Source of the DNA: a virus
Strand: one strand, 5' to 3'
IMG/VR virus record: IMGVR_UViG_3300042196_000102
Location: 1 to 58,406 of that record
Length of the DNA stretch: 58,406 nt
Below the pieces are notes generated by a model, which worked only from the letters and a program-made list of their open reading frames with translations, was not told where the DNA came from and searched no databases. This document shows positions 21,130 through 36,554 of the stretch, piece after piece (positions within the stretch are counted from its first letter, which is position 1; each line of letters opens with the position of its first letter). The translations under genes were made by a program, and so were the position numbers.

Positions 21130-22001
21130 GGCACCCTCCTCACCCCCTGAAACACGATCTGGTACACGGAGTTGAGCATGTTCACCGTCAGCAAACTGGT
21201 GACCTCAAACTGGATCACGCTCCCTCTCCGGTACAGCACACCCGGAACCGGAAAAGTACCATTGTAAGGGTGTGTGGTTGCGTCCGCCGCGTCATTCAGG
21301 ATCACGTCCAGCACCGGAGCACTCATCAGTGGCCGGGGGTAGGTGTCGTACAACATGAGCTTGATCTCGTTGGCAGGAACGCCAAAGTTGTTCACCCCGG
21401 CCCGCTGCAACCTCATCAGTGTAACCCGTTGCAGCTCGAAGTCCATCTCGTCCACCGGCACAATGAACTTCCGAGGTAAGGTGTCCGTGCCAGCCCAGTT
21501 GACCGTGAACTGCGTGGCAGCTTGGTCCCCGTAGCTGAAACCCTTCTCCCAATACTTGTACGAGGAAGGGCCAGGGTAGGCCGTGGCACCGGGGGCAGAC
21601 CCACTGAGGGGCCACCTTCTCACCCCCTGGAAGGCCATCTGCGCAAAGAAGATGGTGACGGCCAAGTTGACCCGGTTCGCACGGGCCACAGTGAACAGGT
21701 CCAAGCCCAATATTCCCTCGGGCTGGATCACTCTCTCGGGGATGATGGGGTACGTGTTGGGCAGGACCACGCCGGCGGAGGCCCCAGTGAAGGGGGCGTA
21801 GTCGTCTTTAATCTGCACCCGGGCACACAGGTTGTTGCGCCCGTAGATTTGACGGAGCACGAAGGCGGCACCGTCGCGGGGGACCACGGCGGGGACGTTG
21901 GAGTAGTTGTTGCCATCCGTCAGGGCGTCCCCGTCGTACACGTACACGTATGGCTGATCGTAGAAGCCTTCCGGGGTCCGGTACTTCTGATCAAGTTTCA
22001 C
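21120..22001 (-). CDS. Tandem-duplicated jelly-roll-like protein (candidate double-jelly-roll capsid protein)
   Basis: 293 aa from GTG 22001, after a GGAAAGAGGCAAGG SD. The two halves each contain D-x-x-F-x-L-(R/Q) and each end in FQGVRRWP or FQGVRRVP. Each half aligns by eye with the 144-aa protein at 23719-24153. Confidence 0.5.
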   Translation of the reverse strand: MKLDQKYRTPEGFYDQPYVYVYDGDALTDGNNYSNVPAVVPRDGAAFVLRQIYGRNNLCARVQIKDDYAPFTGASAGVVLPNTYPIIPERVIQPEGILGLDLFTVARANRVNLAVTIFFAQMAFQGVRRWPLSGSAPGATAYPGPSSYKYWEKGFSYGDQAATQFTVNWAGTDTLPRKFIVPVDEMDFELQRVTLMRLQRAGVNNFGVPANEIKLMLYDTYPRPLMSAPVLDVILNDAADATTHPYNGTFPVPGVLYRRGSVIQFEVTSLLTVNMLNSVYQIVFQGVRRVPCR

Positions 22002-22017
22002 CCTTGCCTCTTTCCTA

Positions 22018-23718: not shown

Positions 23719-24153
23719 CTACCTTTGCGGCCTCGGTAAGTGATACCGCTTGGCCCCCCGGAACAGAATCTGGATCGTGTTCCCGGCATTCGACAAATCC
23801 TGGATCTCAATCCCCAACCTCGATCCAGCGGGCAGCAACAACTCTGGGAAGATGGGGTACGGGTAGGGCACGGCCCCACTCAGGAAGTTGCCAGACAGAA
23901 TGAACCCGCTTGACAAGTAGTACCCTTGCGAGTCCGAAAACCTGATACTGAACGCCCCGGTGTTCTGGGACAGAATGACGGCGCGGAGGGCAAAGTCACT
24001 GTCCACGTGGATTGGGACGGCCTGGTCCCTCAACTGTTGCAGGGCGGTGAGGGTGATGTCGTAGACGTAGGTGAAGTCCACATCAATGTATCCCTCGGGG
24101 AACTGCTCCGCCGCATTTACCCCTGCCAAGACCGGGGTGGCGAATGGATTCAT
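23719..24153 (-). CDS. Single jelly-roll-like protein (candidate penton/vertex protein)
   Basis: 144 aa. DSDFALRAV, YPIFPELLLPAGSRLGIEI and ILFRGAKRY match the motifs of each half of 21120-22001. Confidence 0.5.
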   Translation of the reverse strand: MNPFATPVLAGVNAAEQFPEGYIDVDFTYVYDITLTALQQLRDQAVPIHVDSDFALRAVILSQNTGAFSIRFSDSQGYYLSSGFILSGNFLSGAVPYPYPIFPELLLPAGSRLGIEIQDLSNAGNTIQILFRGAKRYHLPRPQR

Positions 24154-24321: not shown

Positions 24322-24981
24322 CTATTGGATGCCCCGAGCGTGGAGACCGTCGAGCAGGCACATCAGTGCCAGTCCGGTCCCCAAGGTTTGCCCACCAGCC
24401 GCCACCAGCGTGTAGGCATTCCCCGTCAACTGTGCGTAGAACTCCATCTGGTTCTCAATCACGATGGGGATGGCCAGCCGGTGCATGTGATCCCGGCCCG
24501 GCACCCCGTTGGTGTACAGGGCGATGGCGGGGATGGCCGCGATGGTGAAGGCGTTCAGCCCGCCGCCGGCGTTGTAGTGCCAGAGAGGGCCGGTGTTGTA
24601 GGCTTTCTGCCCCAGGAACAACTGGAAGGCAAAGCCCCAGAGGATGGCCAGGATATCGGCCAACACGATGTTTTCCTCCCAAGCCAGCCGGATGGCGAAG
24701 GCCGAGAAAGCCTCGGGAGCCGGGAGCCGGCGCGACTGGGTGAGGTTGGTCTGAGCGAGGGTCTTGCCACTTGCAGGCCCCACGTTGGTGAAGAAGGCGG
24801 TCGAGAGGGCAGTCACCTGGGCGCCCGCCGCCAGCGTCACAGTGTCATACAGAGGCTCGTGTTGGATGTCCATTTGCCCCTGGATGTACACTTGGCTCTG
24901 GAAGGCGTCCAGGATCATCACCTGCTGCGGCGTAAGCTGACTGGCCAGCGCCGCTCTCTGTGCTGCGTAATTCTGGGTCAT
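24322..24981 (-). CDS. Hypothetical structural protein (219 aa, probable jelly-roll-like family member)
   Basis: EAFSAFAIRLAW, IPIVIENQMEFYAQL and LLDGLHARGIQ echo the family motifs. It is followed by the 168-bp non-coding gap 24154-24321, which has GC-rich hairpin potential and a T5 run. Confidence 0.45.
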   Translation of the reverse strand: MTQNYAAQRAALASQLTPQQVMILDAFQSQVYIQGQMDIQHEPLYDTVTLAAGAQVTALSTAFFTNVGPASGKTLAQTNLTQSRRLPAPEAFSAFAIRLAWEENIVLADILAILWGFAFQLFLGQKAYNTGPLWHYNAGGGLNAFTIAAIPAIALYTNGVPGRDHMHRLAIPIVIENQMEFYAQLTGNAYTLVAAGGQTLGTGLALMCLLDGLHARGIQ

Positions 24982-25018: not shown

Positions 25019-26035
25019 CTAGAAGGCGGCACCGAAGGCGCGGCCAATGCCGCTGGCGTTCACTCGGGGCGCAGGGGGCATGGGCATACCCGCCATGATG
25101 GGGTTCTGTGGAACCGGGAATGAGGCATCCGCAAAGGCCCCCAACCCGCTGATCCCCAAAGCCCCCGCCACAGAAGGCAGGAATGCGTTGAGGGCGGTCG
25201 AGCCGGTCTGCATCAGGCCACCGAACAGCACTGCGTCTCCGAAATCCTTGTTGACCTTGCCCGCCACCCAGCCAGCGATGAACGCGGATACGCCGGTGGT
25301 GACCGTGCGCATCAGGTTCGAGCTGACCAGTTGGGACGGGAGCAAGGTGGGGATGAACTTGGCTGCGGCAACTCCGACCAAGCCCCCACCGATTGCGGAC
25401 AGGGTTTTGGTTGCGGAGACACCGACACCAAATGAGAGTTGCGGGTTGCGCCGGCGACGACGCCCGTACTGGACGTTGCGACGACGGGAAGTCCTGCGCC
25501 GATTGCGGCGACGTGGAGCCGTGACCACCACCCGAGTGGCGTTTCTCCGGCTCCGACGACGATGGCGCGGATTTGCTACTGCACGCTTTCTGCGTCTGTG
25601 TCGAGCCACGATTTTCTTTCTCCTTTTTGTTGGGTTCACGGCTCCCAGGGTTACGATCAGAGCCGGGTTGGTGCGCTTCCTTCTCTTCGGATTCTTCCGG
25701 GAGCGACGTTTGCGCGTTGCTTCGCCTGCACGCTTTTTGTTGTAGTCGTAAGATGCACGGATGGGATGGAAAATCCCCTCCTCATCGTAGAATCCTGCGG
25801 CCACATTCCTGCGGCGCCGGCTGCGGTGCCCCTTGGCAGCTATCTTGCGTTTGCGGCTGCCATACCGGGCGCTGTTTCGGCGTTTCAGCGCGGCTTTCTG
25901 CGCCTTGGTGCCAAAATGCTTGATCTGCTTGGCGGTCATGTTCCGGCGGCGGTGAGCGTTCCGTTTCCGGGCACGCTTCCTGGCCCGCTTCCGGGGGTTT
26001 GAGACCAGCCTGCGGGTTCGTATTACTGTTGCCAA
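25019..26035 (-). CDS. Arg/Lys-rich DNA-condensing-type protein with a Gly/Ala-rich hydrophobic C-terminal domain
   Basis: 338 aa from TTG 26035, 4 nt after an AAAGGAGGGG SD. The N-terminal ~200 aa is dominated by runs such as RKRARKRARKR, RSRRRRN and RRRRRNP. The C-terminal ~130 aa is Gly/Ala/Leu-rich and membrane-like. Confidence 0.7.
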   Translation of the reverse strand: MATVIRTRRLVSNPRKRARKRARKRNAHRRRNMTAKQIKHFGTKAQKAALKRRNSARYGSRKRKIAAKGHRSRRRRNVAAGFYDEEGIFHPIRASYDYNKKRAGEATRKRRSRKNPKRRKRTNPALIVTLGAVNPTKRRKKIVARHRRRKRAVANPRHRRRSRRNATRVVVTAPRRRNRRRTSRRRNVQYGRRRRRNPQLSFGVGVSATKTLSAIGGGLVGVAAAKFIPTLLPSQLVSSNLMRTVTTGVSAFIAGWVAGKVNKDFGDAVLFGGLMQTGSTALNAFLPSVAGALGISGLGAFADASFPVPQNPIMAGMPMPPAPRVNASGIGRAFGAAF

Positions 26036-26249
26036 TTTGCCCCTCCTTTCAGGGGATTCTCCCCCGGCCTTTTTGGGGTCCAGGGTCAGCCAAGAAAGCG
26101 AAAGGGCCGCCGGAAGACCCTTTGAACCCACGCCCGTGAGTTTACTTGGGTCTTTCCAGCGGCCCTTTGGCCAAAGCCGCTTTCCTGGTTGTGCTGCTAA
26201 TCCCCTTATCCTACCCCGTCGAGTAGGGCGGGGGAACCTTCAAAACTCG

Positions 26250-26513
26250 TTACACCTCTGCCTCCCCCGTCTTCCCTTTGGCCTTCCCCTTCCGCGTGGA
26301 GACAAGCTCCTCCACGATCTGCTCTTGGCGCTCGGTGAGGGGCTGGTCCGCTACGGGAGGGGCAAGGTCCGGGTGGGCCTCGTACAATTCCCCCAGGGTT
26401 GGGTACACCGGAGACCAGCAGTGGCACTGGACCGCCGACTCGTTGAGCCGGAAGCCGACTCGGTAGCCGCCGGCGGGGCCGGGGAGAGGTTGGATGGACT
26501 TTATCATAGCCAT
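26250..26513 (-). CDS. Hypothetical protein (87 aa)
   Basis: It contains LTERQEQIVEELV, near-identical to the LuxR-type regulator's N terminus, but lacks the HTH. Confidence 0.5.
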   Translation of the reverse strand: MAMIKSIQPLPGPAGGYRVGFRLNESAVQCHCWSPVYPTLGELYEAHPDLAPPVADQPLTERQEQIVEELVSTRKGKAKGKTGEAEV

Positions 26514-26584
26514 GAGTGCGTTGCCTCCTGTAGTATAATTGCTGATGGGGATAGGCTGGAGTCGCCCTCCAAGCTGAATGCCCG

Positions 26585-27322
26585 ATGGCTCCGAACATTG
26601 GCTTCCCCCCTAGTAAATTCGGGTGTCACACGGAGGTGATGATGTACACGAAAACCTGCCTCTGGTGTTCTACGGCTTTCACAACAGTCAGAAAGAAGAG
26701 GATCTACTGCTCCAAACGATGCAGCTTGGTCCACAGAAACACGAAACCAAGGGATGTGGTCTATGTAACAAAACCTTGTGCCTACTGTGGCAAGTTGTTT
26801 GAGAGCCGGAGATGCCTGCATAAAATTACCTGCTCGTTGAGTTGTCGCACATCCTACAATAACACGGTTCCGGTGGAAACTAGATTGCTGTCGAGAATAC
26901 AAATTGACCAGTCCACCGGCTGCTGGAACTGGCAGGGCCACTTGAGTGTACTTGGGTACGGCAAGATTTCGCGTGATGGTAGACTCCAGACCGTGCATAG
27001 AGTTTCCTACGAGATAAAGTACGGAAAGATCCCATCCGGCCTTGAACCAAACCACAAGTGCAGGAACAGGGCATGTGTCAACCCCGATCACATTGAAGCT
27101 GTCACGCATCAACTCAACATCTGGTATGCTAGGGGAATCACAAGCACGCACTGGGGTTGCGGCCATGAAAAGACGAGTCCAAACTCCAGGACGACTAGCA
27201 GTGGCTCTATCGTATGTGGGATTTGCGCCAGAACAAAAGAGAGAGAGAGATACCGCAAGGACCCCGAGAAGTACAAGGCCCGAGTGGCGGCAGTATACTA
27301 CAGAAAAAAGGCTAGTCGATAA
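26585..27322 (+). CDS. HNH homing endonuclease (HNH_3-like) with N-terminal Zn fingers
   Basis: 245 aa on the opposite strand, at lower GC. The pattern is CWNWQGHLSVLGYGKISRDGRLQTVHRVSYE...HKCRNRACVNPDHIEAVTHQLN, plus CLWC...CSKRC and CAYC...CSLSC. Confidence 0.85.
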   Translation: MAPNIGFPPSKFGCHTEVMMYTKTCLWCSTAFTTVRKKRIYCSKRCSLVHRNTKPRDVVYVTKPCAYCGKLFESRRCLHKITCSLSCRTSYNNTVPVETRLLSRIQIDQSTGCWNWQGHLSVLGYGKISRDGRLQTVHRVSYEIKYGKIPSGLEPNHKCRNRACVNPDHIEAVTHQLNIWYARGITSTHWGCGHEKTSPNSRTTSSGSIVCGICARTKERERYRKDPEKYKARVAAVYYRKKASR

Positions 27323-28808
27323 GGCCTGGTGATTCTGCACGATATACCCCTCCTGTGATGCTGAGCAGCTTGCTTCTCGGGCTATAAAGTAACAACGGTT
27401 GATAACCAGATTCTTCCCCAAGCTTGTGCACGTAGTCACTCAACTCAAAGTTGTCAAACTTCTTTCGGGCTTGGTACACAAGCGATGTTAACACGCCCAA
27501 CACCATTGAGTCCTTGATGAACTTGGGACTATCCATCTTAAGATCCCGCAGACTTACCTCCTGATCGCCTCCCTCCACATAGAGTTGCCGCCCGTCCTCG
27601 GAGGCGGCCAAGTACGGGGCGTCCTTGTTGAACCGGATCGTGGCGTCCAGGCCGGAGAGGGTGGCCACCTTCAGCTCCACGAGGGTCCCGAGGGTGGCTA
27701 GGTACTCGTGCTCATGGACCTCGGTTTCCACGGTGGTGACGTGCTCGGCTGGGGCGCCGGTGAAGCCTTCGACAAGGGTGGCAGCAGAGGACTCGGGGTT
27801 GCGCTTCACACTCGCCGCGCCTCTACGAAATGCCTTTTCCCAGTCCGAAAGCCCATAACCACTGGGTGTGGGTCGAGTCCGACCCCAGCCAGCAGTAAGG
27901 TCTGCAGTCTCTCTGTCGTACCATTCAGCATACGCAACATTGATTGGACCAACACCACCACTTAGACGCCAACGCTTGCCAGCCTCGAAGGGTATGTCAA
28001 TGTTGCTGTCGTCGGGGTTGGTCCTCTTCCGCGCTTCCCTTTCCCGCGTCTCGGCGGGATTCCACCTCACCACCTTCGCGGGTGGCACATCCTCCAAGTA
28101 CTGATCCCCGCTGGTGCCGGGCCGGATGTCCACCATGGTCATCCTAACCGTGCCCACCGGAGTTACTTGGGACCCCATGCTGCTCACACTCACCCGGTAT
28201 CCCAACTTACGGAGGGTGGAGGCACGGGCCTTGATGTCCGGGTCTCCTGTTTCGTAGGACTCCTGAATCCAGTCCCGGCCACGGGTTTGGAGGGCAGCGG
28301 GATTCTCTACAGGATTGCCAGTTGGTTTGTAGAGAATATCCCGGTGACCGTAACCAGCAGGACCCAGACTGCGGATTCTGAGTTGTGGATGCCCCTTCTC
28401 AGCCAACTCAAAAAGCCTATTCCAGTCGGAAGCCCATAGGATCACGTTGTCGGGTGTAACATGGATCTCAATACCATCCACTTCGCGGACGTACTGTGGA
28501 CGTGGATTCCTTCTCCCCGGCACCACCGTAGCGTACTCCTTGTACCGTGGGGACTTCTGCCTGAACCTCCAGTAAGTCGCCCCCTTGTCCACCTTCCCAC
28601 TCACAAACCCGTGGTCCCGGAGCCACTTCTGGGCCTCCCCGATACCCCACTTCACCTTGTCAAAGATCACTGACTGGACTTCGGACACCCGCCTGCCCGC
28701 CTTGCGTGCGATCCCCAGCACAAACTTGATGCCCTCGTCCGGGTTGGCAAGCTGGGACACCCAGACCTCAGTGTCAACATGGTGGCATAGGCTTGACCTA
28801 CGCGGCAT
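27312..28808 (-). CDS. Large hypothetical virion-block protein (498 aa)
   Basis: ATG 28808 gives MPRRSSLCHHV. It looks modular, with segments separated by basic-x-N-P linkers (RRNPRP, RWNPAE, RTNPDD, KRNPES). No ATPase or portal motifs seen. Confidence 0.7.
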   Translation of the reverse strand: MPRRSSLCHHVDTEVWVSQLANPDEGIKFVLGIARKAGRRVSEVQSVIFDKVKWGIGEAQKWLRDHGFVSGKVDKGATYWRFRQKSPRYKEYATVVPGRRNPRPQYVREVDGIEIHVTPDNVILWASDWNRLFELAEKGHPQLRIRSLGPAGYGHRDILYKPTGNPVENPAALQTRGRDWIQESYETGDPDIKARASTLRKLGYRVSVSSMGSQVTPVGTVRMTMVDIRPGTSGDQYLEDVPPAKVVRWNPAETREREARKRTNPDDSNIDIPFEAGKRWRLSGGVGPINVAYAEWYDRETADLTAGWGRTRPTPSGYGLSDWEKAFRRGAASVKRNPESSAATLVEGFTGAPAEHVTTVETEVHEHEYLATLGTLVELKVATLSGLDATIRFNKDAPYLAASEDGRQLYVEGGDQEVSLRDLKMDSPKFIKDSMVLGVLTSLVYQARKKFDNFELSDYVHKLGEESGYQPLLLYSPRSKLLSITGGVYRAESPGLID

Positions 28809-29442
28809 TGTGAAGCCTCCCGGCAACCAGTGACTTGTCAAACAGCCTCTTACTTGCGTTAGTGTAGAAGTCGTACCTACCCGTCCCACTACGGTCCTCG
28901 GCATATTTGAATGTGGCCGCGTATCCGCTCTCCCGTAACATACGTTCAACATACTCTGCTACTACCTGGTCCATGTCGGTGGTGGCAGGCAACCTGAACT
29001 TGTGACTATAGTTCACACCCCTAAACTCCGGGTTCGCCTTCCCCTTCCCCCACTCCCCAATGAACCTCTTGGCCTCCACCGGCGTGTCAAACCGGCTCTC
29101 CGGGTCAATCGAGGGCACCATCCACCCCCCAGCAGAGGGTAGGATGTCGTGCCCTTTGTGGCGGGTGGGCCGACCACGCGGGACCCCGGCGGCAGAGGAG
29201 GAGGCGGGGGGCCGGGTGACTCCGTGGCCACCCAGCATACCGAACAGGGACTCGGAGCGGGCACGAGCGAGGCCAAACGGGTTACCCTTGCCTCTCCTTT
29301 TGCGCCTTCGCCCCAACACCCCCGCAGCCAGCGCCAACTCCTCCTCCAGCAATCCAGGGCCGGGGGTGAGCAGCAGGGCGGCAAGGTCGGACTGGTTGGC
29401 CTTGAATTGCACCCTGACACGTCTTGTGGCTGTCCTGCTCAT
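28798..29442 (-). CDS. Hypothetical basic protein (214 aa)
   Basis: ATG 29442 overlaps the upstream TGA (ATGA). It contains RRRKRRGKGNPFG and KGKANPEF. Confidence 0.6.
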   Translation of the reverse strand: MSRTATRRVRVQFKANQSDLAALLLTPGPGLLEEELALAAGVLGRRRKRRGKGNPFGLARARSESLFGMLGGHGVTRPPASSSAAGVPRGRPTRHKGHDILPSAGGWMVPSIDPESRFDTPVEAKRFIGEWGKGKANPEFRGVNYSHKFRLPATTDMDQVVAEYVERMLRESGYAATFKYAEDRSGTGRYDFYTNASKRLFDKSLVAGRLHNAA

Positions 29443-29711
29443 TTCCGCATCCCAAACACCACCAAGGCCCCCACCCCCAACCCAGCCACGATCAGCCAGG
29501 TCGCCGGGGCTTGGCAGTACCCGCCCGCCTTCAAGTCCTCGTACCACTCGCACGGACTCCCCCCAACAATCGCTGGAGCCGACTCCCGTATCACAATCGT
29601 CCGGGGTTCGGTCCACATCGGGGGCCACATTGGGGGTGGGGGTGGCGGTGGCGGAGGGGGAGGAGGGGGCGGGTCCTCCCCAATCCCACGCAACCTTGAT
29701 CCGATCATCAT
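29439..29711 (-). CDS. Tail-anchored membrane protein with a Pro14 run (CxWYED family)
   Basis: 90 aa. It has 14 consecutive Pro, then SPCEWYEDLKAGGYC, then the TM helix WLIVAGLGVGALVVFG followed by MRK. Confidence 0.65.
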   Translation of the reverse strand: MMIGSRLRGIGEDPPPPPPPPPPPPPPMWPPMWTEPRTIVIRESAPAIVGGSPCEWYEDLKAGGYCQAPATWLIVAGLGVGALVVFGMRK

Positions 29712-29712
29712 G

Positions 29713-30000
29713 TCAGTCGTCCCACCTGACCGTCACCCCGGTCATCGGCCTCAACCTCAACCATGTGTCCAACTGGTCCTCTCTCTTCGCACACCCGCCA
29801 CACTGCTTGATCCCCAGCCAATCGGTCAGGCTATGGACGAGTTGGCCCGCCCCCACCTCCCGCCCGAGGAGAGGAACGGGAATGGACACTCGCGCCGGGG
29901 TCGTCTGGGTCCCTGGCACGGGAGGGTAGGGGCCGGTGCCAACTCCTGCTGGAGCTGCGGGTTGTTGCGGGTGTGAGAGGCCGTGGAAATCAATACGCAT
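29713..30000 (-). CDS. Hypothetical protein (95 aa)
   Basis: The ORF fits between its neighbours. It has a CGGC motif. No TM helix seen. Confidence 0.5.
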   Translation of the reverse strand: MRIDFHGLSHPQQPAAPAGVGTGPYPPVPGTQTTPARVSIPVPLLGREVGAGQLVHSLTDWLGIKQCGGCAKREDQLDTWLRLRPMTGVTVRWDD

Positions 30001-30024
30001 AAAGTCCTACACTTTGCCTTGGTG

Positions 30025-30411
30025 TTACCTCTTGTACCTCCCGCCGCTGTACAAGATCCAGACCCCGGCCACGACAGCGCCAGCCACGAGGATGGAGGAC
30101 ACATTGCCAACCTTCAGGCCCTCCCACCAGTCTGTAACCGACTGGCCGATGTCGAGTGCCCCCATCCCAACCTGACAGCGGGGGCCACAGCCGCACCCGC
30201 ACCCCCCACCCAGCCCGTTGCAGCCATCAAGGGCATTCAGGAGCGGGTTCTCCGGGATGGGGAAGAAAGCTGGCATCAGTTCCCCCAATTTGGGCTTGTA
30301 CTTCACAAGGGCCACCTCCCCTCCCTCTTCGATGGGGTTTTGGGGGACGGTCCAGGTTCCGGGCATCATTTCGGCCAGCCCGAGGGCTGGGTGATACGGT
30401 AAGTGCGGCAT
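30025..30411 (-). CDS. Tail-anchored membrane protein (128 aa) with a GGGCGCGCG Cys/Gly cluster
   Basis: The C-terminal TM helix ILVAGAVVAGVWILY is followed by SGGRYKR. Confidence 0.6.
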   Translation of the reverse strand: MPHLPYHPALGLAEMMPGTWTVPQNPIEEGGEVALVKYKPKLGELMPAFFPIPENPLLNALDGCNGLGGGCGCGCGPRCQVGMGALDIGQSVTDWWEGLKVGNVSSILVAGAVVAGVWILYSGGRYKR

Positions 30412-30420
30412 AAGTCCTCC

Positions 30421-30669
30421 TTACTTTCTCCTTCCCACCACTGCAAACAGTACAATCCCGCCCGCGATGGCCAGCAGGAAGTTGACCCCCGGAAAAGTAC
30501 AGGTCCGGTCGTTCTGCTCATCCTCGTACCACGCACACGGGCGGGGGCCGGCCACGGTGGTCCTGAACACCGGTGGCTCCGCGACGGGCGGCGGGGGCAG
30601 TACCGGAGTAGGCAGCAGGATGTCCCGCAAGTACGAAGGCGGCTCCGGGATTTGGCCAATGTGCATCAA
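30421..30669 (-). CDS. Tail-anchored membrane protein (CxWYED family)
   Basis: 82 aa. It has a Pro-rich N half, RPCAWYEDEQNDRTC, then the TM helix FLLAIAGGIVLFAVVG followed by RRK. It is a paralog of 29439-29711. Confidence 0.65.
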   Translation of the reverse strand: MMHIGQIPEPPSYLRDILLPTPVLPPPPVAEPPVFRTTVAGPRPCAWYEDEQNDRTCTFPGVNFLLAIAGGIVLFAVVGRRK

Positions 30670-31070
30670 CGCCTGCCTCCCATGACCGATGGCAGTACAA
30701 ACACGATTGCAGCAATACCCCCGACAAAGAGCATGAACGAGGGCCGCGAGGGGTCAAACTTGCACTGGAGCGTGTTCAGGTCCAAGGACGTAAACCCGCC
30801 GCACTGGGGGGTGTTGGTGGGGACACCCGCAGGGGCTATTCCCGGTCCTGGCAACAAGGGGTTCTTCTGGGCCTCTGTGGGGGGGTTGCACGTTGGGTCC
30901 CCGGTCGCACAGGCGTAGATGTTACCGGCAATCGTCTTGGGGTTCCACTTGCAGCCCGACTCGGTGAGGCTGTCCAGCCAGTAGGGGAGCCACGAGGGGC
31001 GGTTTGGGTCGTAGCAGTAGTAGCCGGGGTACTCACCCATACCCATACCGACTCGGGCGGGCATCATCAC
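30666..31070 (-). CDS. Cys-rich tail-anchored membrane protein (134 aa)
   Basis: Several Cys lie in the ectodomain. The C-terminal TM helix FMLFVGGIAAIVFVLPSV is followed by MGGRR. Confidence 0.6.
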   Translation of the reverse strand: MMMPARVGMGMGEYPGYYCYDPNRPSWLPYWLDSLTESGCKWNPKTIAGNIYACATGDPTCNPPTEAQKNPLLPGPGIAPAGVPTNTPQCGGFTSLDLNTLQCKFDPSRPSFMLFVGGIAAIVFVLPSVMGGRR

Positions 31071-31354
31071 CTGCCACCTCCAGCCCGTGCTTGGCCCGCC
31101 GCTTGCCCCTGTCCCTGTTGCGCCTGCTGCACTTGTTTCTCCCTTGCCGCCGCCAGCGCCGTCCTCATTGCATTTTGCAACTGTTGGGGGCTGAGCCGCA
31201 AAGGGCCAAGGTACCGCCGGATAGAGGAGTGGATCTGCCGCTTGAAGTGCTGGTACACGAGGGCCTCGGGGATACCGGCTTTGGTGTCCACAAGGCGGTC
31301 CAAGACCCGGATGGCCAATAGATCCACGCGTCCGGTTGGGTCGGTCTTAGCCAT
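31067..31354 (-). CDS. Hypothetical protein (95 aa), Gln/Ala-rich C terminus
   Basis: ATGA-type overlap with the next gene. No TM helix. Confidence 0.5.
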   Translation of the reverse strand: MAKTDPTGRVDLLAIRVLDRLVDTKAGIPEALVYQHFKRQIHSSIRRYLGPLRLSPQQLQNAMRTALAAAREKQVQQAQQGQGQAAGQARAGGGR

Positions 31355-31360
31355 TCTGGT

Positions 31361-31537
31361 TCAGTCCGCCCCCTCCCGCCTCTCCCGTGATTCCCGTTCC
31401 TCAATCAGCGTGGCCACCAACTCCTCCAGCCAATTGCCGACCGTCTCAGCATCTACCCCGGCACGGAAACCTAGTTGGTTTTTGATCCGCTGGTGCAGAC
31501 GCTTCAAGACATCGATTTCCACTTGAAGACTGGGCAT
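31361..31537 (-). CDS. Hypothetical small protein (58 aa, below the track cutoff)
   Basis: My own translation reads MPSLQVEIDVLKRLHQRIKNQLGFRAGVDAETVGNWLEELVATLIEERESRERREGAD. Its ATG shares one base with the upstream TGA. Confidence 0.4.
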   Translation of the reverse strand: MPSLQVEIDVLKRLHQRIKNQLGFRAGVDAETVGNWLEELVATLIEERESRERREGAD

Positions 31538-31683
31538 CAGTTCAGTCCCTTGGCAAACAGGATGGCCACCCCGATGGCCACCACCAGCAGCAAAAGGTAC
31601 TCGTTGGGTAGTCCGGGTACAATCCCGGCTTGCTGCGGGACTGTCTGTGTACTCGGTGTCTGACCCAACGTTACCATCGCCAT
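31537..31683 (-). CDS. Small tail-anchored membrane protein (48 aa, below the track cutoff)
   Basis: My own translation reads MAMVTLGQTPSTQTVPQQAGIVPGLPNEYLLLLVVAIGVAILFAKGLN. Confidence 0.4.
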   Translation of the reverse strand: MAMVTLGQTPSTQTVPQQAGIVPGLPNEYLLLLVVAIGVAILFAKGLN

Positions 31684-31693
31684 TCCCGATCCC

Positions 31694-31819
31694 TTACTTC
31701 AGGGCCACCCACAACCCCGCTGCGGCTAGGGCGATCCAAAACCAAGTAGCTGAGGGGCAGCCCCCTTGGTCTACGTACTGGTAGCACCCAAGAGGGAGTT
31801 GCCAACTGTTGCATTGCAT
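31694..31819 (-). CDS. Small tail-anchored membrane protein (41 aa, CxWYED-related)
   Basis: My own translation reads MQCNSWQLPLGCYQYVDQGGCPSATWFWIALAAAGLWVALK. An AAGGAGAAA SD lies 6 nt before the ATG. Confidence 0.45.
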   Translation of the reverse strand: MQCNSWQLPLGCYQYVDQGGCPSATWFWIALAAAGLWVALK

Positions 31820-31854
31820 ACCCGTTTCTCCTTTTCCCTTTCAGCCTTCACCCT

Positions 31855-32319
31855 TCAATTGGCCCACGCATTCACCACGGGCCAACTTGCCAATCCCCGG
31901 ACGCCACCACTCAACGCCCACTGGCGCATGGCCAAGTAATCCTGGAGCGGGAAGGTCTTGCCCGCATCCCTCGTGCGCATCTCCTGGGTGTACCAGCCCT
32001 GCGCCTCTCCGCTCACCTGCGCGAAGAAGTAATTCCACTGGTCAACCGTCATCTTACCATCCCAACTTGGCCCCATCGCTGCCTTGACGACGTTCACCAA
32101 CTCATCCACGCTCGGGGGCTTGGGTGGCGTAGTGGGGGCTGGCTTGGCCAGCGCAGGTTGGGTGGTGACAACCGGTGGCTCGATGGCAGGCTGCGTCCCT
32201 GGGGGTAGGGCAGGCTGGGCCACCCCGCCCCCGAGGTAGCCTTGCTCCTGCGCCCACTTGTACACCAAGTAAGCTGCCACGGCAATAAGCACGTACTTCA
32301 GGATGTCCTCGCCCTTCAT
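31855..32319 (-). CDS. N-terminally anchored membrane protein (154 aa)
   Basis: ATG 32319 overlaps the upstream TGA (ATGA). The TM helix is ILKYVLIAVAAYLVY, followed by a Pro-rich linker. Confidence 0.55.
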   Translation of the reverse strand: MKGEDILKYVLIAVAAYLVYKWAQEQGYLGGGVAQPALPPGTQPAIEPPVVTTQPALAKPAPTTPPKPPSVDELVNVVKAAMGPSWDGKMTVDQWNYFFAQVSGEAQGWYTQEMRTRDAGKTFPLQDYLAMRQWALSGGVRGLASWPVVNAWAN

Positions 32320-32846
32320 GCTGCTGCCCTCCTTGGCTTCCGTCTCCCTCTTGCCGTCCGGCGCCCAGCACCACCAAGCAGGATTGCCCCGGCCAACAGT
32401 GCCCCGCCTGCCAGCAAGGGGTGGTCGGCTACCCACCGGTTGATGGAGCACACAAACCCAAGCCCTTGCCCGGTGTCCGGTGCCATCACCCCATACGGCT
32501 GCGGGTACACGGCAGTCTTCATCTTGACCGTGGGCAGGGCCGGGACGAGGTAGAGGGCTGACTGGTCGGCAGGAGTAAGGGACTCGGCCCACAGGCACAA
32601 GTCGGTGTCGATAACCCCCAGCCCCCCTAGGCCAGCCATGTGCTGGGCCTTGGCCCTTTCCGCTGCCTTCTCGGGCAGCTCGACCAAGTGCTCCTCCCCC
32701 TCCCCTCCCTCTTGCTCCCGCTTCCTGAGTCCAAAGAACCTCATAGCGACCGCTGTGGCGCTGGCCTGCTCCGGTAGCCCGGGTAGTTGGGCCTTGGACT
32801 CAGGGATCGGGAGTATGTCTTCACCAGTGTTGACCCATCTGGGCAT
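32316..32846 (-). CDS. Tail-anchored membrane protein (176 aa)
   Basis: ATG 32846 follows an AAGGAGG SD. The C-terminal helix LLAGGALLAGAILLGGAG is followed by a basic tail. Confidence 0.55.
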   Translation of the reverse strand: MPRWVNTGEDILPIPESKAQLPGLPEQASATAVAMRFFGLRKREQEGGEGEEHLVELPEKAAERAKAQHMAGLGGLGVIDTDLCLWAESLTPADQSALYLVPALPTVKMKTAVYPQPYGVMAPDTGQGLGFVCSINRWVADHPLLAGGALLAGAILLGGAGRRTARGRRKPRRAAA

Positions 32847-32850
32847 AGGC

Positions 32851-33489
32851 TTACTTGCCTCCTTTGAACAGTAAATAGGCCCCCACCCCGGCACCTGCCA
32901 GCCAAGCCCACGTGGGGATCGTGGAGAACAGGGAGGGTTCCGTGCCAGCACCAGCACCGTTGGTCACGACCCCGGCCTCCTGCGCCACCTGTTGCTGGAT
33001 TACCGCTGCCGTGGTGGGAGGGGTGGCCATAGGCACTACCGAGTCCCCCGCCGCCGGAAGCCTGGTTATGGTTTCGGTGGCCAGGGGCAGGTTGGTCCCG
33101 GCCTGGATCTCGGGAGGGGCCGAGAATAGAGCCTGGTTATAAGCGGAGATCCGCTGCTTGAGGGCGGACAACTGACTCTCGGATAACCGGGGGAACTGTT
33201 GCTCTACCAGCACCCGTGTCTCGTTGGTGGACAGAAAGGACCAGATGAGGTGTAGACGGTCGTAGCGGTAGGCGTAAGGGGCGTACTTCCAGGATTTGGG
33301 GCGCTCGTAAGACACCCCCCCACCGCCCGCCCCCGCCACGGCTGGGGAGGAGGCGGAGTAAGAAGCCATCTGGCCGGTGAGAATATCGGGGACGGTGTAA
33401 GTGCCCTGCCCCAAGCCTTCCATGGTCAGAGGGGCGAACCAACCGGGGGAGGTGAACTGCTGGTAGGAGATCCAAGCCGGTAGTCTCAC
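32851..33489 (-). CDS. Tail-anchored membrane protein (212 aa)
   Basis: The GTG start overlaps the upstream TGA (GTGA). The C-terminal helix WAWLAGAGVGAYLLF is followed by KGGK. Confidence 0.6.
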   Translation of the reverse strand: MRLPAWISYQQFTSPGWFAPLTMEGLGQGTYTVPDILTGQMASYSASSPAVAGAGGGGVSYERPKSWKYAPYAYRYDRLHLIWSFLSTNETRVLVEQQFPRLSESQLSALKQRISAYNQALFSAPPEIQAGTNLPLATETITRLPAAGDSVVPMATPPTTAAVIQQQVAQEAGVVTNGAGAGTEPSLFSTIPTWAWLAGAGVGAYLLFKGGK

Positions 33490-33803
33490 TCGTCTACCTC
33501 TTCCTCATCATCTTGTGAATCATCAAAGTCATCCCAACCGCAGCGGCAATCATACTCCCCACAAACATCACATTTGGTCGTCGTGCTGCTGTCCACCATC
33601 ACCACTTGCCCCTCCGTCTGCACTCCACACAGCGGGTGCGGTACTTTGGTGTCTTGCTTGTTGGCAACTGCTTTCGATGGCCACATTCCAGTACTAGACC
33701 AGTCGCCGTGCCATGCGTGATGCCACAACCGTGTTGACTGATGATGAATCGCCCCTGAATCTTCCGAAAGGGGGAGGGGGGTATGTACAACCTCACTTGC
33801 CAC
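33486..33803 (-). CDS. Small Cys-rich/acidic protein(s); reading frame uncertain
   Basis: One reading is a single 105-aa ORF. The other is a 65-aa Zn-ribbon ORF (33599-33796) followed by a 37-aa acidic Cys-rich ORF coupled by TGATG at 33599. My third-position GC count (60% versus 62%) does not discriminate between them. Confidence 0.35.
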   Translation of the reverse strand: MASEVVHTPLPLSEDSGAIHHQSTRLWHHAWHGDWSSTGMWPSKAVANKQDTKVPHPLCGVQTEGQVVMVDSSTTTKCDVCGEYDCRCGWDDFDDSQDDEEEVDE

Positions 33804-34635
33804 CTCCGATCAGGAATGCCCCGGCAACTAGGGCAATGGCCAGCAGGAGGGTCCCACTTCCAGCCCCACCAAACACACCTCCTGTCAGGGAGTCAATCAA
33901 CTTCCCTGTGGCTGCGTCTACCAGTGGGTCCGGCTTCACATTGGGGTCTTGGACTATGGGGGTCCGATAACGAGCAAACCAGTCCCACACTCCGCCCGCC
34001 TGCCGTTCGCTGATACACCTTTCGCCTGGGTCCCCCATCTCCGGGATGCCACAGTTGTCCACCACGTACTGCCAACCCGCATCGAAGTTGTTGAGGGCCT
34101 GGACTTGGGAGGAGACGGTGTGGGGGCCAGCCATATAGCCTGCGAGATTCTGCTGGAGGAGAGGTTCTACCTTGTCCACAATCTGCGTGGTGGCCACCTT
34201 CTGCCTAGGACCCTTGCGGCCAAACAGAGCCATCAACCCGAGGGTGACTCCAGCAACCACGGCCCCGATGATGGGGATGGCGGCGGCAGTGAGGCCAAGG
34301 AAAGTGCCCGTGCCTGCTGCGGCCCCGGCTCCGGCGGTCGAGGTGGCGATACCAGTGGTGAGGACCCCCCCGATGATTTGGGGAGTGGAGAGGGCGATGG
34401 AGGAACCGGTCTGCCCTAGGCCAACCAGGGAGACGGCCTCCTCAGCCTCAAACCCGCTCAGCCCATACTCCCGCATCAAGGACCACTCTTTGAGGGTGTA
34501 GTAGCGCTTGGGGGAGTAGTGACGGGGGAGGGGGGAGGGTTGGCCGATGGAGAGAGCGGACGGGGGGGCAGGGACGGAGGGGTGGGTGGGAGGGGACCAG
34601 GGGGAGGTGTAGACGTAAGAAGCCGGATGCATCAC
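33793..34635 (-). CDS. Multi-pass / tail-anchored membrane protein (280 aa)
   Basis: It has a central Gly/Ala-rich hydrophobic block. The C-terminal helix LLLAIALVAGAFLI is followed by GGGK. Confidence 0.65.
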   Translation of the reverse strand: MMHPASYVYTSPWSPPTHPSVPAPPSALSIGQPSPLPRHYSPKRYYTLKEWSLMREYGLSGFEAEEAVSLVGLGQTGSSIALSTPQIIGGVLTTGIATSTAGAGAAAGTGTFLGLTAAAIPIIGAVVAGVTLGLMALFGRKGPRQKVATTQIVDKVEPLLQQNLAGYMAGPHTVSSQVQALNNFDAGWQYVVDNCGIPEMGDPGERCISERQAGGVWDWFARYRTPIVQDPNVKPDPLVDAATGKLIDSLTGGVFGGAGSGTLLLAIALVAGAFLIGGGK

Positions 34636-35048
34636 ACTCTCCCTATTCCAAACCTATATCGACCTGCCAATAAAAGCAACTGTCTTGCCCTCACTATATC
34701 GTTGGTCACAATGTTCCAACCTCGGTAGTCCTTTACAGCGTTGGCAACGACTCCATGCTTTCTCAGGAATCCTCTGTCCACAATCGCTGCTTGCTTGTCC
34801 TTATACACGTGGGAATAGATGGAACCAGCCTGCGGGTTGCCTCTACGTAGAGGTATCTTGATCTGCACCCGTCCATCGGGCAGGCGGCGGACCATCGCCC
34901 GTATCCCTCCCTGCGGATTGCTGCGGCGGCGTTTTCCTCTTCCACCCCCGTTGCCGCCTTCCCTCTTCCACCCGAGGTCCCGGAGTTTCTGTAGCAGGAT
35001 ATCACGCTCAGACCGCAGGCGACGACGGAGGCTGAACCGTTGGGCCAT
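34632..35048 (-). CDS. Basic hypothetical protein (138 aa)
   Basis: ATG 35048 follows GGGGGAGGACAAGG. It contains RRRSNPQG, RRLPDGRVQIKIP and RRGNPQAG. Confidence 0.55.
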   Translation of the reverse strand: MAQRFSLRRRLRSERDILLQKLRDLGWKREGGNGGGRGKRRRSNPQGGIRAMVRRLPDGRVQIKIPLRRGNPQAGSIYSHVYKDKQAAIVDRGFLRKHGVVANAVKDYRGWNIVTNDIVRARQLLLLAGRYRFGIGRV

Positions 35049-35049
35049 C

Positions 35050-35370
35050 CTACCTTGTCCTCCCCCTTCCCCTTCCCTGTATCTTGATCTGCACCTTGCC
35101 CCCCCGGAGCCTCTTGACCGTGGCCGGGGTCCACCGGGTCGGGATGTCGCGGGCAGTTGCGTGGGGATTGTCAATCCGTCCGACGTGCTCTTTGATCGGC
35201 TCGTTGTCCTTCCATAGACTGACACTTTCACCACCTGCCCGACCGTGGCCTAACTGGGAAGCCCGGACATAATTCCCATAGGCTCTCAGAGCTGATTTGT
35301 AATTTGAGCCTTCGTAGACCTTACCAACGTTGCCTACAACGACCTCGTAGAATGGTTTGTACGTTGGCAT
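35050..35370 (-). CDS. Hypothetical protein (106 aa)
   Basis: It ends KRLRGGKVQIKIQGRGRGRTR, paralogous to a segment of the next gene. Confidence 0.55.
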   Translation of the reverse strand: MPTYKPFYEVVVGNVGKVYEGSNYKSALRAYGNYVRASQLGHGRAGGESVSLWKDNEPIKEHVGRIDNPHATARDIPTRWTPATVKRLRGGKVQIKIQGRGRGRTR

Positions 35371-35371
35371 C

Positions 35372-35833
35372 CTACTTCTTCCCCCTTGCCAGCATCATCA
35401 CTAGAAAGAACGCCCCGCCCGCCAGCAGGATCATCCCCACCCCCGGACTGGCTACTCCGCTCACTGCCGCCGTCCCAGCCCCCGCCGTCAGGATGGAGGG
35501 CTGGGTCCCCCCAGGTTGCCGATACGTGATCGTCCCGCCGGTTGGGGAGGTCTGCACATACGTCCCCTTGGGGTACGTTACTTGGAGCAGGAGTTGTTCG
35601 CCGGTCTTGATGAGGCCCTCCCACCACGAGGGGGTAGTGGCGGTGACCGGCATCCCTGGAATCGGGGCCATCCAAGAGGGGTCCAAGGTGGGGGGCATAG
35701 GCAATTGGCCAACCCCACGCAACCGGACGGGGCGCTTCCACTGGCCCATCCCCGGCACGGCTGGCCCCTCGCCTGCTGCCACCGGATACGCCAATCCTGG
35801 ACTTAACTGGATATTGCAAGCTGGAACCTGCAC
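35372..35833 (-). CDS. Tail-anchored membrane protein (153 aa)
   Basis: GTG start. The C-terminal helix MILLAGGAFFLVMML is followed by ARGKK. Confidence 0.6.
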   Translation of the reverse strand: MQVPACNIQLSPGLAYPVAAGEGPAVPGMGQWKRPVRLRGVGQLPMPPTLDPSWMAPIPGMPVTATTPSWWEGLIKTGEQLLLQVTYPKGTYVQTSPTGGTITYRQPGGTQPSILTAGAGTAAVSGVASPGVGMILLAGGAFFLVMMLARGKK

Positions 35834-35834
35834 G

Positions 35835-36554
35835 TTACACCCACCCCCTTCCTTTTTGCCGTCCCCAGATCAGCCATACCACCAGTACCGCTCCCAGTAA
35901 CATGGGCCAGATCGGGGCGAAGATCGTCCACTCCTCAAGCCGGCCCAACCCAGTGGCCTCCCAGCCCGGATACATCCCATGGCTTACATCCATCGGAATC
36001 CGGCCCCGCCCCTCGGGGTACGCGGCAAGGTAGACGTGGGAGAACCTGTCCGGGTACTGGTGGTCCGCCGCGATGGTCACGAAGGTGGACTTGATCCCGG
36101 CGGCTTTGAGGAGTGCGGCGGTATACATGGCGAAGTCATCACAGTCCCCCACCTTGCTGCACTCGCCTTGCGCACACAGCACGCTCATGTCCTTGGGTCG
36201 GATCAACACTTCCACGATGGGCAACCCGTACTGTGGGGCGAGGGGTATCGCGATCTGGGAATCCTGCTGGAACTTGAGCCGCTGCTTGACAAACCAGAAA
36301 ATCCCGTGGATGGGGTCCTGGCCGGGGGCGACGGCCTGCCCAAGATCACCCTGGATCTCGGGGGAGGCCCAATCCTCCCGCACGTAGCGCCCCATCAACG
36401 CGATTGTGTCCTGGACCTGCGTATCCGGGTCGTCGGAGGTGATCTGGCCAACGTGCCGCAAGGCTTCCATCGGGTCCTTGGGGCCTACTTTCGACGGTTC
36501 ATAGTCCTCTGTCGTCCTGGGGTACAGTACGTCGTGTACCAGTATGCACCACAA
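35835..36554 (-). CDS. Transglutaminase-like cysteine peptidase with a C-terminal TM anchor
   Basis: The Cys-His-Asp core reads GDCDDFAMYTAALLKAAGIK ... FSHVYLAAY ... IPMDVSHG. The C-terminal helix is WPMLLGAVLVVWLIW. The start is uncertain: TTG 36554 or ATG 36470. Confidence 0.7.
   Translation of the reverse strand: MWCILVHDVLYPRTTEDYEPSKVGPKDPMEALRHVGQITSDDPDTQVQDTIALMGRYVREDWASPEIQGDLGQAVAPGQDPIHGIFWFVKQRLKFQQDSQIAIPLAPQYGLPIVEVLIRPKDMSVLCAQGECSKVGDCDDFAMYTAALLKAAGIKSTFVTIAADHQYPDRFSHVYLAAYPEGRGRIPMDVSHGMYPGWEATGLGRLEEWTIFAPIWPMLLGAVLVVWLIWGRQKGRGWV

Follow-up and report, generated by a model that had tools for sequence, protein, structure and literature searches.

Introduction

Membrane-containing tailless phages are thought to be abundant; very few of them have been characterised, and their membrane proteins are almost unstudied. 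It is well established that prokaryotic viruses with a capsid of the PRD1/PM2 type carry an internal membrane. PRD1 combines a double jelly-roll (DJR) capsid protein and a single jelly-roll penton with about ten small membrane proteins (the set P7/P14, P11, P16, P18, P20, P22, P32 and P34), and PM2 encodes its small membrane proteins beside a compact DJR capsid gene on a circular double-stranded DNA (dsDNA) genome. Here, we describe a comparable locus in the virus record IMGVR_UViG_3300042196_000102 (positions 1 to 58,406), a stretch of 58,406 nt that we refer to as the window and to whose positions all coordinates refer. The subject of this study is a battery of small genes at 29.4-36.55 kb, most of whose products end in a hydrophobic helix and a short basic tail.

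Among membrane-containing phages with circular dsDNA genomes, the largest known is Salisaeta phage SSIP-1, with 44 kb and a T=49 capsid (PMC6260650); it is believed to employ two capsid proteins with a single barrel each (PMC6356626, PMC4958249). The prokaryotic DJR viruses catalogued in 2018 have genomes of 7-18 kb; nearly all DJR viruses, and all those with larger genomes, possess a packaging ATPase, and the only prokaryotic DJR viruses without one belong to the very small Odin and FLiP groups (PMC5894146). As to the membrane, the membrane proteins of PRD1 enter the host membrane before a patch of it is pinched off, and the transmembrane (TM) proteins P3 and P6 of PM2 have been proposed to register the capsomers on the membrane (PMC6356626).

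In the following, we argue that the products of the battery probably build up the inner lipid membrane of a tailless bacterial virus that is undescribed, unusually large (58 kb) and equipped with a capsid protein of the PRD1/PM2 type. The argument is built on the enrichment of tail-anchored proteins in this interval, the conservation of this enrichment, the absence of tailed-phage genes, the jelly-roll fold of the capsid protein and the homology of the first battery gene to gp34 of SSIP-1.

Results

A battery of tail-anchored proteins

Genes were called across the whole window by codon usage, and several starts were then corrected by eye. To be counted as tail-anchored, a protein had to contain an uncharged 15-residue window with a mean Kyte-Doolittle hydropathy >=1.6 within its last 31 residues, followed by a net-positive tail. 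Ten of the 16 called genes in 29.4-36.55 kb encode such proteins, compared with 2 of 70 elsewhere (Fisher p = 1.3e-7). After start correction, the interval 29439-36554 comprises 18 tightly packed genes, all on the minus strand. Ten of their products are strictly tail-anchored (genes starting at 29439, 30025, 30421, 30666, 31537, 31694, 32316, 33793, 35372 and 35835), one is borderline (32851-33489), one has an N-terminal anchor (31855-32322) and six are soluble. An initial annotation of the window had claimed at least 13 tail-anchored genes here. The pattern itself is borne out, in that most products (10 of 18, or 11 with the borderline case) end in a C-terminal helix with a basic tail, and the ten C-termini that it quoted all occur verbatim in minus-strand open reading frames (ORFs); the count was slightly high, as we arrive at 11-12 membrane proteins, the N-terminally anchored one included.

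In principle, such a pattern could arise spuriously, either from the way ORFs are called in GC-rich DNA or from low-complexity, hydrophobic translations without biological meaning: at a GC content of 61%, the window yields many long spurious ORFs, and our detector is simple. However, the same detector was positive for only 6 of 489 out-of-frame ORFs of the window (1 of 65 within the interval), the battery genes have coding-type codon usage, and the anchors are conserved across hundreds of homologs from other samples. This conservation and the out-of-frame control effectively refute an artefact, to which we assign a negligible probability. In further controls, the detector flagged 0 of 60 proteins of phage lambda and 2 of 51 of the GC-rich Pseudomonas phage D3112. 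We conclude that the pattern is genuine, belongs to the coding frame and is well above what chance would give.

The anchors are also uniform. In the tail-anchored battery proteins, the uncharged span has a mean length of 22 residues and the tail a median length of two. Across six genomes, the window and the five relatives introduced below, the C-terminal tail averages 2.1 Lys and Arg residues, whereas the 15 positions that precede the helix contain on average 0.5 Lys/Arg and 1.3 acidic residues. An N-terminal hydrophobic signal, defined as a 12-mer with a mean hydropathy >=2.0, was found in none of the tail-anchored battery proteins longer than 70 aa in these genomes.

Conservation in related viruses

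Using two core battery proteins, we found three related contigs of 56-62 kb (L001-L003), and subsequently two more (L009 and L011); together with the window, their GC contents range from 56 to 64%. The battery recurs with the same gene order in all five, between the gene for a transglutaminase (TGase)-like protein and that for a protein we refer to as 'big'. The common order starts with a large divergent gene (642 aa in the window), continues with the TGase-like anchored protein and the run of small proteins, and leads to the 'big' protein, which has a conserved C-terminal domain; where the sequence reaches far enough, an Arg-rich protein and then the capsid genes follow. Tail anchors are present in 51 of the 85 battery proteins of the six genomes, and five battery families are common to several genomes.

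Two core members are much more widespread. The TGase-like protein has more than 349 homologs; of the 120 listed, 92 retain the C-terminal anchor, and 85 of these 92 also have a net basic tail. For the 280-aa protein encoded at 33793-34635, 739 representative homologs were found; out of 150 of these, 141 retain the C-terminal TM helix but only 62 the basic tail. Its gene is syntenic in L001, L003, L009 and L011, and an overlapping homolog is present in L002. Overall, the metagenomic relatives are contigs of 54-75 kb and number in the hundreds.

A transglutaminase-like peptidase shared with SSIP-1

The first gene of the battery, which is also the first of the late operon (35835-36470, minus strand; start at M29 of an ORF that runs to 36554), encodes a 211-aa TGase-like cysteine peptidase with a C-terminal TM helix. 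Its match to Pfam Transglut_core is weak (E 3e-4, 21.3 bits, below the 23-bit cut-off), and many of its homologs carry PF01841. In 40 aligned homologs, the motifs GDCDD, SHVY and DxSHG are invariant and constitute a Cys-His-Asp triad. In the AlphaFold2 model (pLDDT 93), a helical N-domain precedes the TGase core, and residues 188-207 form a C-terminal helix; the Foldseek neighbours of the model, found with probabilities of 0.98-1.0, are Rad4/PNGase, transglutaminases, putative bacterial cysteine proteases, LapG and PeiW/PeiP. Fold and motifs thus place the protein among the transglutaminase-like cysteine peptidases (the PF01841 clan, with a papain-like core and a Cys-His-Asp triad), as the initial annotation had proposed. 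PeiW and PeiP are virus-encoded cell-wall (pseudomurein) endoisopeptidases. They and the LapG-type proteases resemble the window protein in fold and Cys-His-Asp chemistry, with TM-scores of up to 0.58 (PeiW), but are soluble, lack a C-terminal anchor and are only ~12% identical to it in sequence.

The most informative comparison is that with SSIP-1. An alignment of the TGase-like family with SSIP-1 gp34, an annotated structural protein with a TGase fold and a C-terminal TM helix, reached an hhalign probability of 97.6% (E 3.5e-12, 122 columns), with the catalytic Cys and His (motifs GDCDD/ADCDG and SHVY/DHVY) in register. The genomic settings are alike, too. SSIP-1 has a large circular dsDNA genome in which nearly all genes are orphans, and its structural block holds 8-10 tail-anchored ORFs, three of which (gp34, gp41 and gp53) are annotated as structural; as in the window, the TGase-like gene lies upstream of all other tail-anchored ORFs and structural genes. 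No other single finding argues as strongly as the homology to gp34 that the first battery gene specifies a membrane protein of the virion and that, by extension, the rest of the battery does so too. By analogy, we infer that the TGase-like protein is a peptidase carried in the virion, where gp34 is located in SSIP-1; it would either cut peptide links of the cell wall at entry or process virion proteins.

The relationship is confined to this gene: when the profiles of the 'big', 219-aa, 144-aa, 280-aa and capsid proteins were compared with all SSIP-1 proteins by hhalign, none matched, and the TGase-like one alone did. Moreover, the window encodes a fused double jelly roll where SSIP-1 would have two single-barrel capsid proteins, and SSIP-1 gp40 has a canonical Walker A motif, whereas the late operon of the window has none.

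As a separate observation, an (R/K)-x-Asn-Pro motif occurs seven times in each of the products of 25019-26131 and 27312-28952, at 4-6 times the genome average, and was noted also in that of 28798-29439. It is conserved in the homologs (L001-L004 and L011) and often opens the conserved C-terminal domain of the 'big' protein. The motif may be a processing site for the TGase-like peptidase or a site of Asn-Pro self-cleavage, of the kind found in reovirus mu1.

Putative capsid genes

The most conserved gene of the lineage (21120-22001, minus strand, within an ORF at 21120-22082) encodes a putative DJR capsid protein of 293 aa, for which we found 50 homologs with 31-77% identity on contigs of up to 61 kb. 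Its AlphaFold2 model (pLDDT 86, pTM 0.84) is all-beta, with two domains of ~8 and ~9 strands. The best Foldseek matches in the PDB are the capsid protein of Singapore grouper iridovirus (E 3.5e-5), PR772 P3, PBCV-1 and PRD1 P3, and those among predicted viral structures are capsid proteins of Satyrvirus, the tectiviruses Wip1 and GC1, a virophage and pithoviruses; overall, the DJR matches have E-values of 3e-5 to 1e-3 and probabilities of 0.8-1.0. In addition, the N-terminal and C-terminal halves of the protein are homologous to each other (hhalign 76%, E 2e-5, 110 columns). Model, structural matches and internal homology agree on a major capsid protein of two jelly rolls, the vertical stance of the barrels being beyond the model. 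We consider the assignment good, although short of conclusive because the TM-scores are low (~0.25).

A 144-aa protein encoded nearby (23719-24153, minus strand) is a paralog of the capsid halves (hhalign probability 97.9%, E 5e-13 for the N-terminal half; 92.5%, E 5e-7 for the C-terminal half). It is probably a single jelly roll and a candidate penton or minor capsid protein with a role at the vertices. A DJR protein beside a single jelly-roll paralog would, by analogy, be the hexon-plus-penton layout of PRD1/PM2-type viruses. In sequence searches, the capsid profile and that of the 219-aa protein described below retrieved nothing from the PDB.

The capsid ORF contains F-Q-G-V-R-R twice, in the middle of the protein and at its end, and the 144-aa protein ends in F-R-G-A-K-R, so that all three jelly-roll units end in F-(Q/R)-G-x-(K/R)-R. 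Likeness at the sequence level between the barrels of a DJR protein and a penton-like protein is unusual and bears on the origin of DJR capsid proteins.

Proteins next to the capsid genes

A 219-aa protein with a near-Walker A motif (24322-24981, minus strand), whose gene is flanked by that of the Arg-rich protein on one side and by the capsid genes on the other, has the size and position of the P9 packaging ATPases of PRD1 and PM2. The motifs VGPASGKTL and LAIP(I/L)VIEN are invariant in five relatives. It aligns to the PRD1 and PM2 P9 proteins over the P-loop alone and not significantly, and it found no match in Pfam, PHROGs or the PDB.

The adjacent 370-aa protein (25019-26131, minus strand; homologs at L003 17182-17991 and L004 7550-8518) is protamine-like over its first ~230 residues, with RRRR and KRRK runs, while its C-terminal part is hydrophobic and Gly/Ala-rich and ends in ...GIGRAFGAAF. 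This composition suggests that the DNA is condensed by protein, with the 370-aa protein as the candidate condensing core protein, possibly tied to the membrane.

Genome and virus type

Positions 1-127 and 58280-58406 of the window are identical, indicating that the window is complete, as a circular or terminally redundant genome of ~58.3 kb. The repeat corresponds in length to the largest k-mer that assemblers typically use, so a closed circle of ~58,279 bp is the most likely form of the contig, and true terminal repeats are less likely.

According to Pfam and PHROGs scans, the right third of the window is a phage-type replication module, with a split family-A polymerase and its UDG-exonuclease part, an ERCC4 nuclease, an N6/N4 methylase, a NADAR-domain protein, an AAA_24 (PF13479) protein, a DEAD/XPD-like helicase and a VapE primase-helicase. 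The polymerase is only ~33% identical to those of tailed phages. Its polymerase domain (44573-45874) and the protein with the UDG and 3'-5' exonuclease parts (47171-48592), both on the minus strand, flank two unrelated genes (45875-46234 and 46261-47067). Further recognisable genes encode a tyrosine integrase and a sigma/LuxR-type regulator. A putative lysis or entry cassette (5256-5944, minus strand) consists of an SLT transglycosylase with a C-terminal TM helix (5256-5759) and a 62-aa holin-like protein with two TM helices (5756-5944); it was recognised by Pfam SLT in the ORF set, by the PHROGs endolysin and transglycosylase families, and by direct reading of the hydropathy. The integrase, the regulator and this cassette point to a temperate virus of a bacterial host with murein.

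Apart from its replication module (PolA etc.), nothing in this genome resembles a tailed phage. The same scans found no terminase, portal, HK97-fold capsid, protease or tail gene among the ~80 ORFs of the window, so that the hallmarks of Caudoviricetes (large terminase, portal, HK97-fold capsid, tail proteins) are absent, in line with the earlier remark that such a battery is not normal for tailed phages. Moreover, five late proteins (the 569-aa, 642-aa, capsid, TGase-like and 280-aa proteins) had no tblastn match in 50,697 deposited phage genomes. The capsid protein had none among plasmids either, and 24 kb of the window had no megablast match to phages. Except for the weak TGase match, 20 large proteins of the late operon matched nothing in Pfam or PHROGs. 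Scans of the window for tRNAs, Rfam families and tandem repeats gave nothing relevant, a scan for promoters and terminators gave nothing above chance, and in the literature we found no description of this lineage. Among GTDB genomes, the capsid profile retrieved a single 3.6-kb contig in a Methylophilaceae bin, which is unusable for host assignment.

Two other identities were considered and rejected. A type IV secretion system or conjugative element could contain an SLT domain, but VirB4/VirD4 ATPases are missing and the replication module is phage-like; an archaeal host is at odds with the SLT murein hydrolase, the Sec-type signal peptides and the tyrosine integrase, all of which point to a bacterium. 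In the middle of the late operon, ~1 kb (26500-27500) has a GC content of 0.47-0.53, versus 0.61 overall. This stretch lacks a convincing ORF, matches nothing in Rfam and may serve in regulation, as an origin or as an attachment site.

Comparison with known membrane proteins

Applied to PM2, our detector flagged P3, P4, P8 and gp j, which we take to be P10, as tail-anchored with Lys/Arg ends such as ...LVLGLVMRGNK and ...GLFLVIKRK; P3, P8 and P10 are membrane proteins already known from this phage; for P4, a 17-residue hydropathy scan finds no TM segment. As in the window, the small membrane proteins of this circular dsDNA phage are encoded beside a compact DJR capsid gene (P2 with 269 aa versus 293 aa). 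PM2 differs in its 10-kb genome, its rolling-circle Rep, its FtsK-like P9 ATPase and the number of tail-anchored proteins (4-5 versus at least 11 in the window). In PRD1, P7 combines an SLT transglycosylase domain with a TM helix close to the C-terminus and is comparable with the product of 5256-5759; the membrane anchors of PRD1, however, are mostly N-terminal, and its 15-kb genome is linear, with a terminal protein, PolB and the P9 ATPase. The window proteins show no similarity to the sequences of PM2 P2 or PRD1 P9.

The window does not fit the families of these phages: it has neither the capsid sequence of Corticoviridae or Tectiviridae nor a rolling-circle Rep or a protein-primed PolB with inverted terminal repeats, but instead PolA, a VapE primase-helicase, a DEAD helicase, a direct terminal overlap and a genome 4-6 times larger. 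Nor does it fit Pleolipoviridae, which have no capsid, one spike and one internal membrane protein, and genomes of 7-17 kb, whereas the window encodes jelly-roll proteins and at least 11 membrane proteins on 58 kb. Of the resemblance to lipid-containing viruses put forward in the initial annotation, the PRD1/PM2 part is thus upheld by the jelly-roll capsid and the parallels to PM2 and SSIP-1; the pleolipovirus part is unsupported because a capsid gene is present.

Outside these groups, both cellular tail-anchored proteins such as E. coli ElaB and YqjD and certain Cys-rich, C-terminally anchored membrane proteins of poxvirus virions have a single C-terminal TM helix, no signal peptide and a short, often basic tail; in the poxvirus proteins, the Cys-rich domains lie N-terminal to the anchor. 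Neither group is homologous to the battery, and the analogy is one of topology only. We also considered inovirus-like coat proteins, given the combination of helix and basic tail, and rejected them in view of the 58-kb dsDNA genome, PolA and the jelly-roll capsid.

The battery genes

The following genes all lie on the minus strand and are described from the TGase-like gene onwards, with anchors assigned by hydropathy. Next to it, a 153-aa tail-anchored protein with a homolog in L003 (35372-35833) ends in ...FLVMMLARGKK. Two small basic proteins follow in which no TM helix was detected: one of 106 aa (35050-35370; homolog at L011 8976-9104) with the motif RLRGGKVQIKI, and one of 138 aa (34632-35048), which begins at M63 of its ORF and contains a second RRLPDGRVQIKI motif. 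Their common motif RRLxxG(K/R)VQIKI gives us the impression of AbrB/SpoVT-type DNA-binding hairpins. The 280-aa core membrane protein has an internal TM region (107-140) besides its C-terminal anchor and ends in ...GAFLIGGGK.

It is followed by a Cys-rich soluble protein of 105 aa with an acidic tail and no TM helix (33486-33803), and by the borderline 212-aa protein (32851-33489), whose weak C-terminal anchor (...WAWLAGAGVGAYLLFKGGK / ...AYLLFKGGK) falls below the hydropathy threshold and which clusters with the family of 30025-30411. A 213-aa tail-anchored protein with homologs in L002 and L009 (32316-32957; found by hydropathy and gene call) has a long basic tail (RRTARGRRKPRRAAA), and the 155-aa protein at 31855-32322, whose family occurs in L001, L002 and L011, is the one with an N-terminal TM helix (MKGEDILKYVLIAVAAYLVYKW...). 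Two very small tail-anchored proteins come next, of 41 aa with three Cys (31694-31819, ending in ...GLWVALK) and of 48 aa (31537-31683, ending in ...AILFAKGLN), and then two small soluble ones of 58 and 95 aa without a detectable TM helix (31067-31537), the latter with a homolog in L009.

Among the remaining genes, 30666-31070 encodes a Cys-rich tail-anchored protein of 134 aa ending in ...VLPSVMGGRR, and 30421-30669 a Pro-rich one of 82 aa with the motif CxWYED...C. The latter is linked by BLASTP to its paralog at the end of the battery (29439-29711), a 90-aa tail-anchored protein with a poly-proline run and the end ...ALVVFGMRK. The product of 30025-30411 (128 aa, tail-anchored, with a Gly/Cys-rich stretch and the end ...VWILYSGGRYKR) represents a core family that is present in all six genomes and encoded by the last or one of the last battery genes in the five relatives. 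Finally, a soluble 95-aa protein with a CGGC motif (29713-30000) is conserved at L004 1121-1339; the two have a ...LTDxL...QCGGC... motif with a CxxC-type pair in common.

The Cys-rich and Pro-rich ectodomains mentioned in the initial annotation can be read directly in these translations as N-terminal parts. Many battery proteins have paired cysteines right before the helix, as in the CxWYED...C motif of 29439 and 30421, and it is conceivable that these pairs and the CGGC protein are involved in disulfide formation.

The same ending had been pointed out outside the battery, and indeed a 102-aa tail-anchored protein ending in ...LLLLVRRG is encoded directly downstream of the capsid gene (20821-21129, minus strand); it was not picked by the codon-usage gene call and has no equivalent in L004.

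Other late proteins

Eight proteins of the late operon (6268-6900, 8362-9369, 9911-11164, 11168-12460, 12433-13332, 13616-14026, 14013-15110 and 22018-23358, minus strand) have signal peptides or N-terminal anchors, e.g. MKRLLVLLILATFPVALHAQQ. They are mostly large and rich in Gly, Thr and Ser, and at least two of them are conserved in L004.

Three further minus-strand genes (17029-18738, 15074-16675 and 19596-20600) encode paralogs with differing N-terminal parts and a common C-terminal domain of ~180 aa, marked by the motif ...VPxGYDG(I/V)I...GPGFLEGNGD(L/I)EWRLK..., which is also found in L004 and in the only four database homologs, those of the 569-aa protein. By hhalign, the common domain is unrelated to the jelly-roll proteins, and the three paralogs are candidate vertex or spike proteins.

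Discussion

A proposed model of an internal virion membrane

The battery and its parallels in SSIP-1 and PM2 suggest that this virus has an internal lipid membrane, for which we propose the following model. The capsid would be formed by the DJR protein and the homologous single jelly-roll protein, and the block at 29.4-36.5 kb, which opens a long minus-strand late operon, would encode the protein complement of the membrane within: 10-11 C-terminally anchored single-pass proteins, the 280-aa protein with two TM helices, one N-terminally anchored protein and a few small basic soluble partners. Since the tail-anchored proteins have no signal peptides, they would be inserted post-translationally via their C-terminal helix, either into the cytoplasmic membrane of the host or into a virus-specific patch, so that their N-terminal domains, with a median length of 124 aa, would remain on the side of the cytoplasm, where they may dock capsomers and vertex proteins, as proposed for PM2 P3 and P6. 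After membrane acquisition, the cytoplasmic side would face the capsid shell and the Lys/Arg tails would lie at the opposite face, toward the lumen and the DNA, where they might fix the helix or contact the packaged DNA.

Several points weigh against this interpretation. The topology calls rest on a simple hydropathy detector of our own, and the positive-inside rule puts basic C-terminal tails in the cytoplasm, in conflict with the N-in topology of tail-anchored proteins. The matches of the low-scoring capsid model include a non-viral enzyme with two jelly rolls, PHM. No FtsK/HerA-type ATPase for packaging was found with Pfam and PHROGs, and a canonical Walker A motif is absent outside the replication genes, so that the 219-aa protein is the only lead. 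Contrary to what a capsid assembled in the cytoplasm would lead one to expect, at least eight products of the late operon bear a Sec-type signal peptide or an N-terminal anchor. Lastly, 50 of the 85 battery proteins are singletons without a detectable homolog among the six genomes.

This last point is typical of accessory phage membrane genes, as are the small size, the fast evolution and the single TM pass of these proteins, and basic tails are common in holins and bacterial tail-anchored proteins. The battery could hence act in the host membrane rather than in the virion, be it in lysis (as holin-, antiholin- or spanin-like proteins), superinfection exclusion, membrane remodelling or the formation of an assembly factory, comparable to the non-structural assembly factors P10 and P17 of PRD1. 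Yet a distinct cassette with an SLT transglycosylase and a two-TM protein already exists at 5256-5944, and the battery heads a late operon that contains the capsid genes wherever the sequence of the relatives extends far enough. Its core members equal the capsid gene in how widely they occur (349+ and 739 homologs), and gp34, gp41 and gp53 of SSIP-1 are annotated as structural. Nor did the core battery proteins turn up in the 50,697 phage records, where ordinary tailed phages might have carried them in lysis or exclusion cassettes. On balance, a role outside the virion appears unlikely to us.

A second alternative starts from the signal-bearing proteins. The virus might bud through the cytoplasmic membrane or wrap itself in it, like plasmaviruses, pleolipoviruses or phi6, with the exported proteins as spikes and the tail-anchored ones as matrix-side or fusion components of an outer envelope. 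The missing packaging ATPase would agree with such a particle, and so would the basic tails, for which the cytoplasmic side, here the interior of the virion, is the one expected from the positive-inside rule. However, pleolipoviruses and plasmaviruses have no capsid, whereas a conserved DJR protein and a jelly-roll paralog are present here; without signal peptides, the large N-terminal domains of the tail-anchored proteins could not easily be external; and SSIP-1, the one characterised virus to which homology was found, has an internal membrane (PMC6260650). We judge an outer envelope to be improbable, slightly more so than a role outside the virion. If neither alternative is dismissed altogether, it is on account of the features that depart from the PRD1/PM2 template, namely the lack of a canonical ATPase, the signal-bearing late proteins and the protamine-like 370-aa protein. 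An internal virion membrane remains our preferred explanation of the battery.

Significance

The membrane-protein set of a tailless lipid-containing phage is, as such, a known kind of system. New are the size of the genome, the number and uniformity of the tail anchors, the anchored enzyme with a TGase fold and the apparent lack of a packaging ATPase. Taken together, these features may define a new high-rank lineage of membrane-containing viruses: about three times larger than any prokaryotic DJR virus in the 2018 catalogue, with a 'young' or independently evolved DJR protein, protamine-like DNA condensation, no canonical ATPase, a dozen tail anchors and a TGase-fold peptidase shared only with SSIP-1. 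That every part of this composite picture is correct seems to us a little short of an even chance.

For the study of such viruses, a dense run of small C-terminally anchored proteins, headed by an anchored TGase-fold peptidase, could serve as a signature by which to spot them in the absence of a recognisable capsid gene, and an orphan gene of SSIP-1 has gained its first homologous relatives. With 349+ and 739 homolog clusters of two core genes, the lineage is large and widespread, and it joins replication of the tailed-phage type to a jelly-roll capsid module. Should the lack of a packaging ATPase be confirmed, the lineage would lend itself to testing how 58 kb of DNA can be enclosed in its absence. 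Likewise, if the internal repeat of the capsid protein and its single-barrel paralog are structurally confirmed, they would offer a direct view of the origin of DJR capsid proteins from single barrels.

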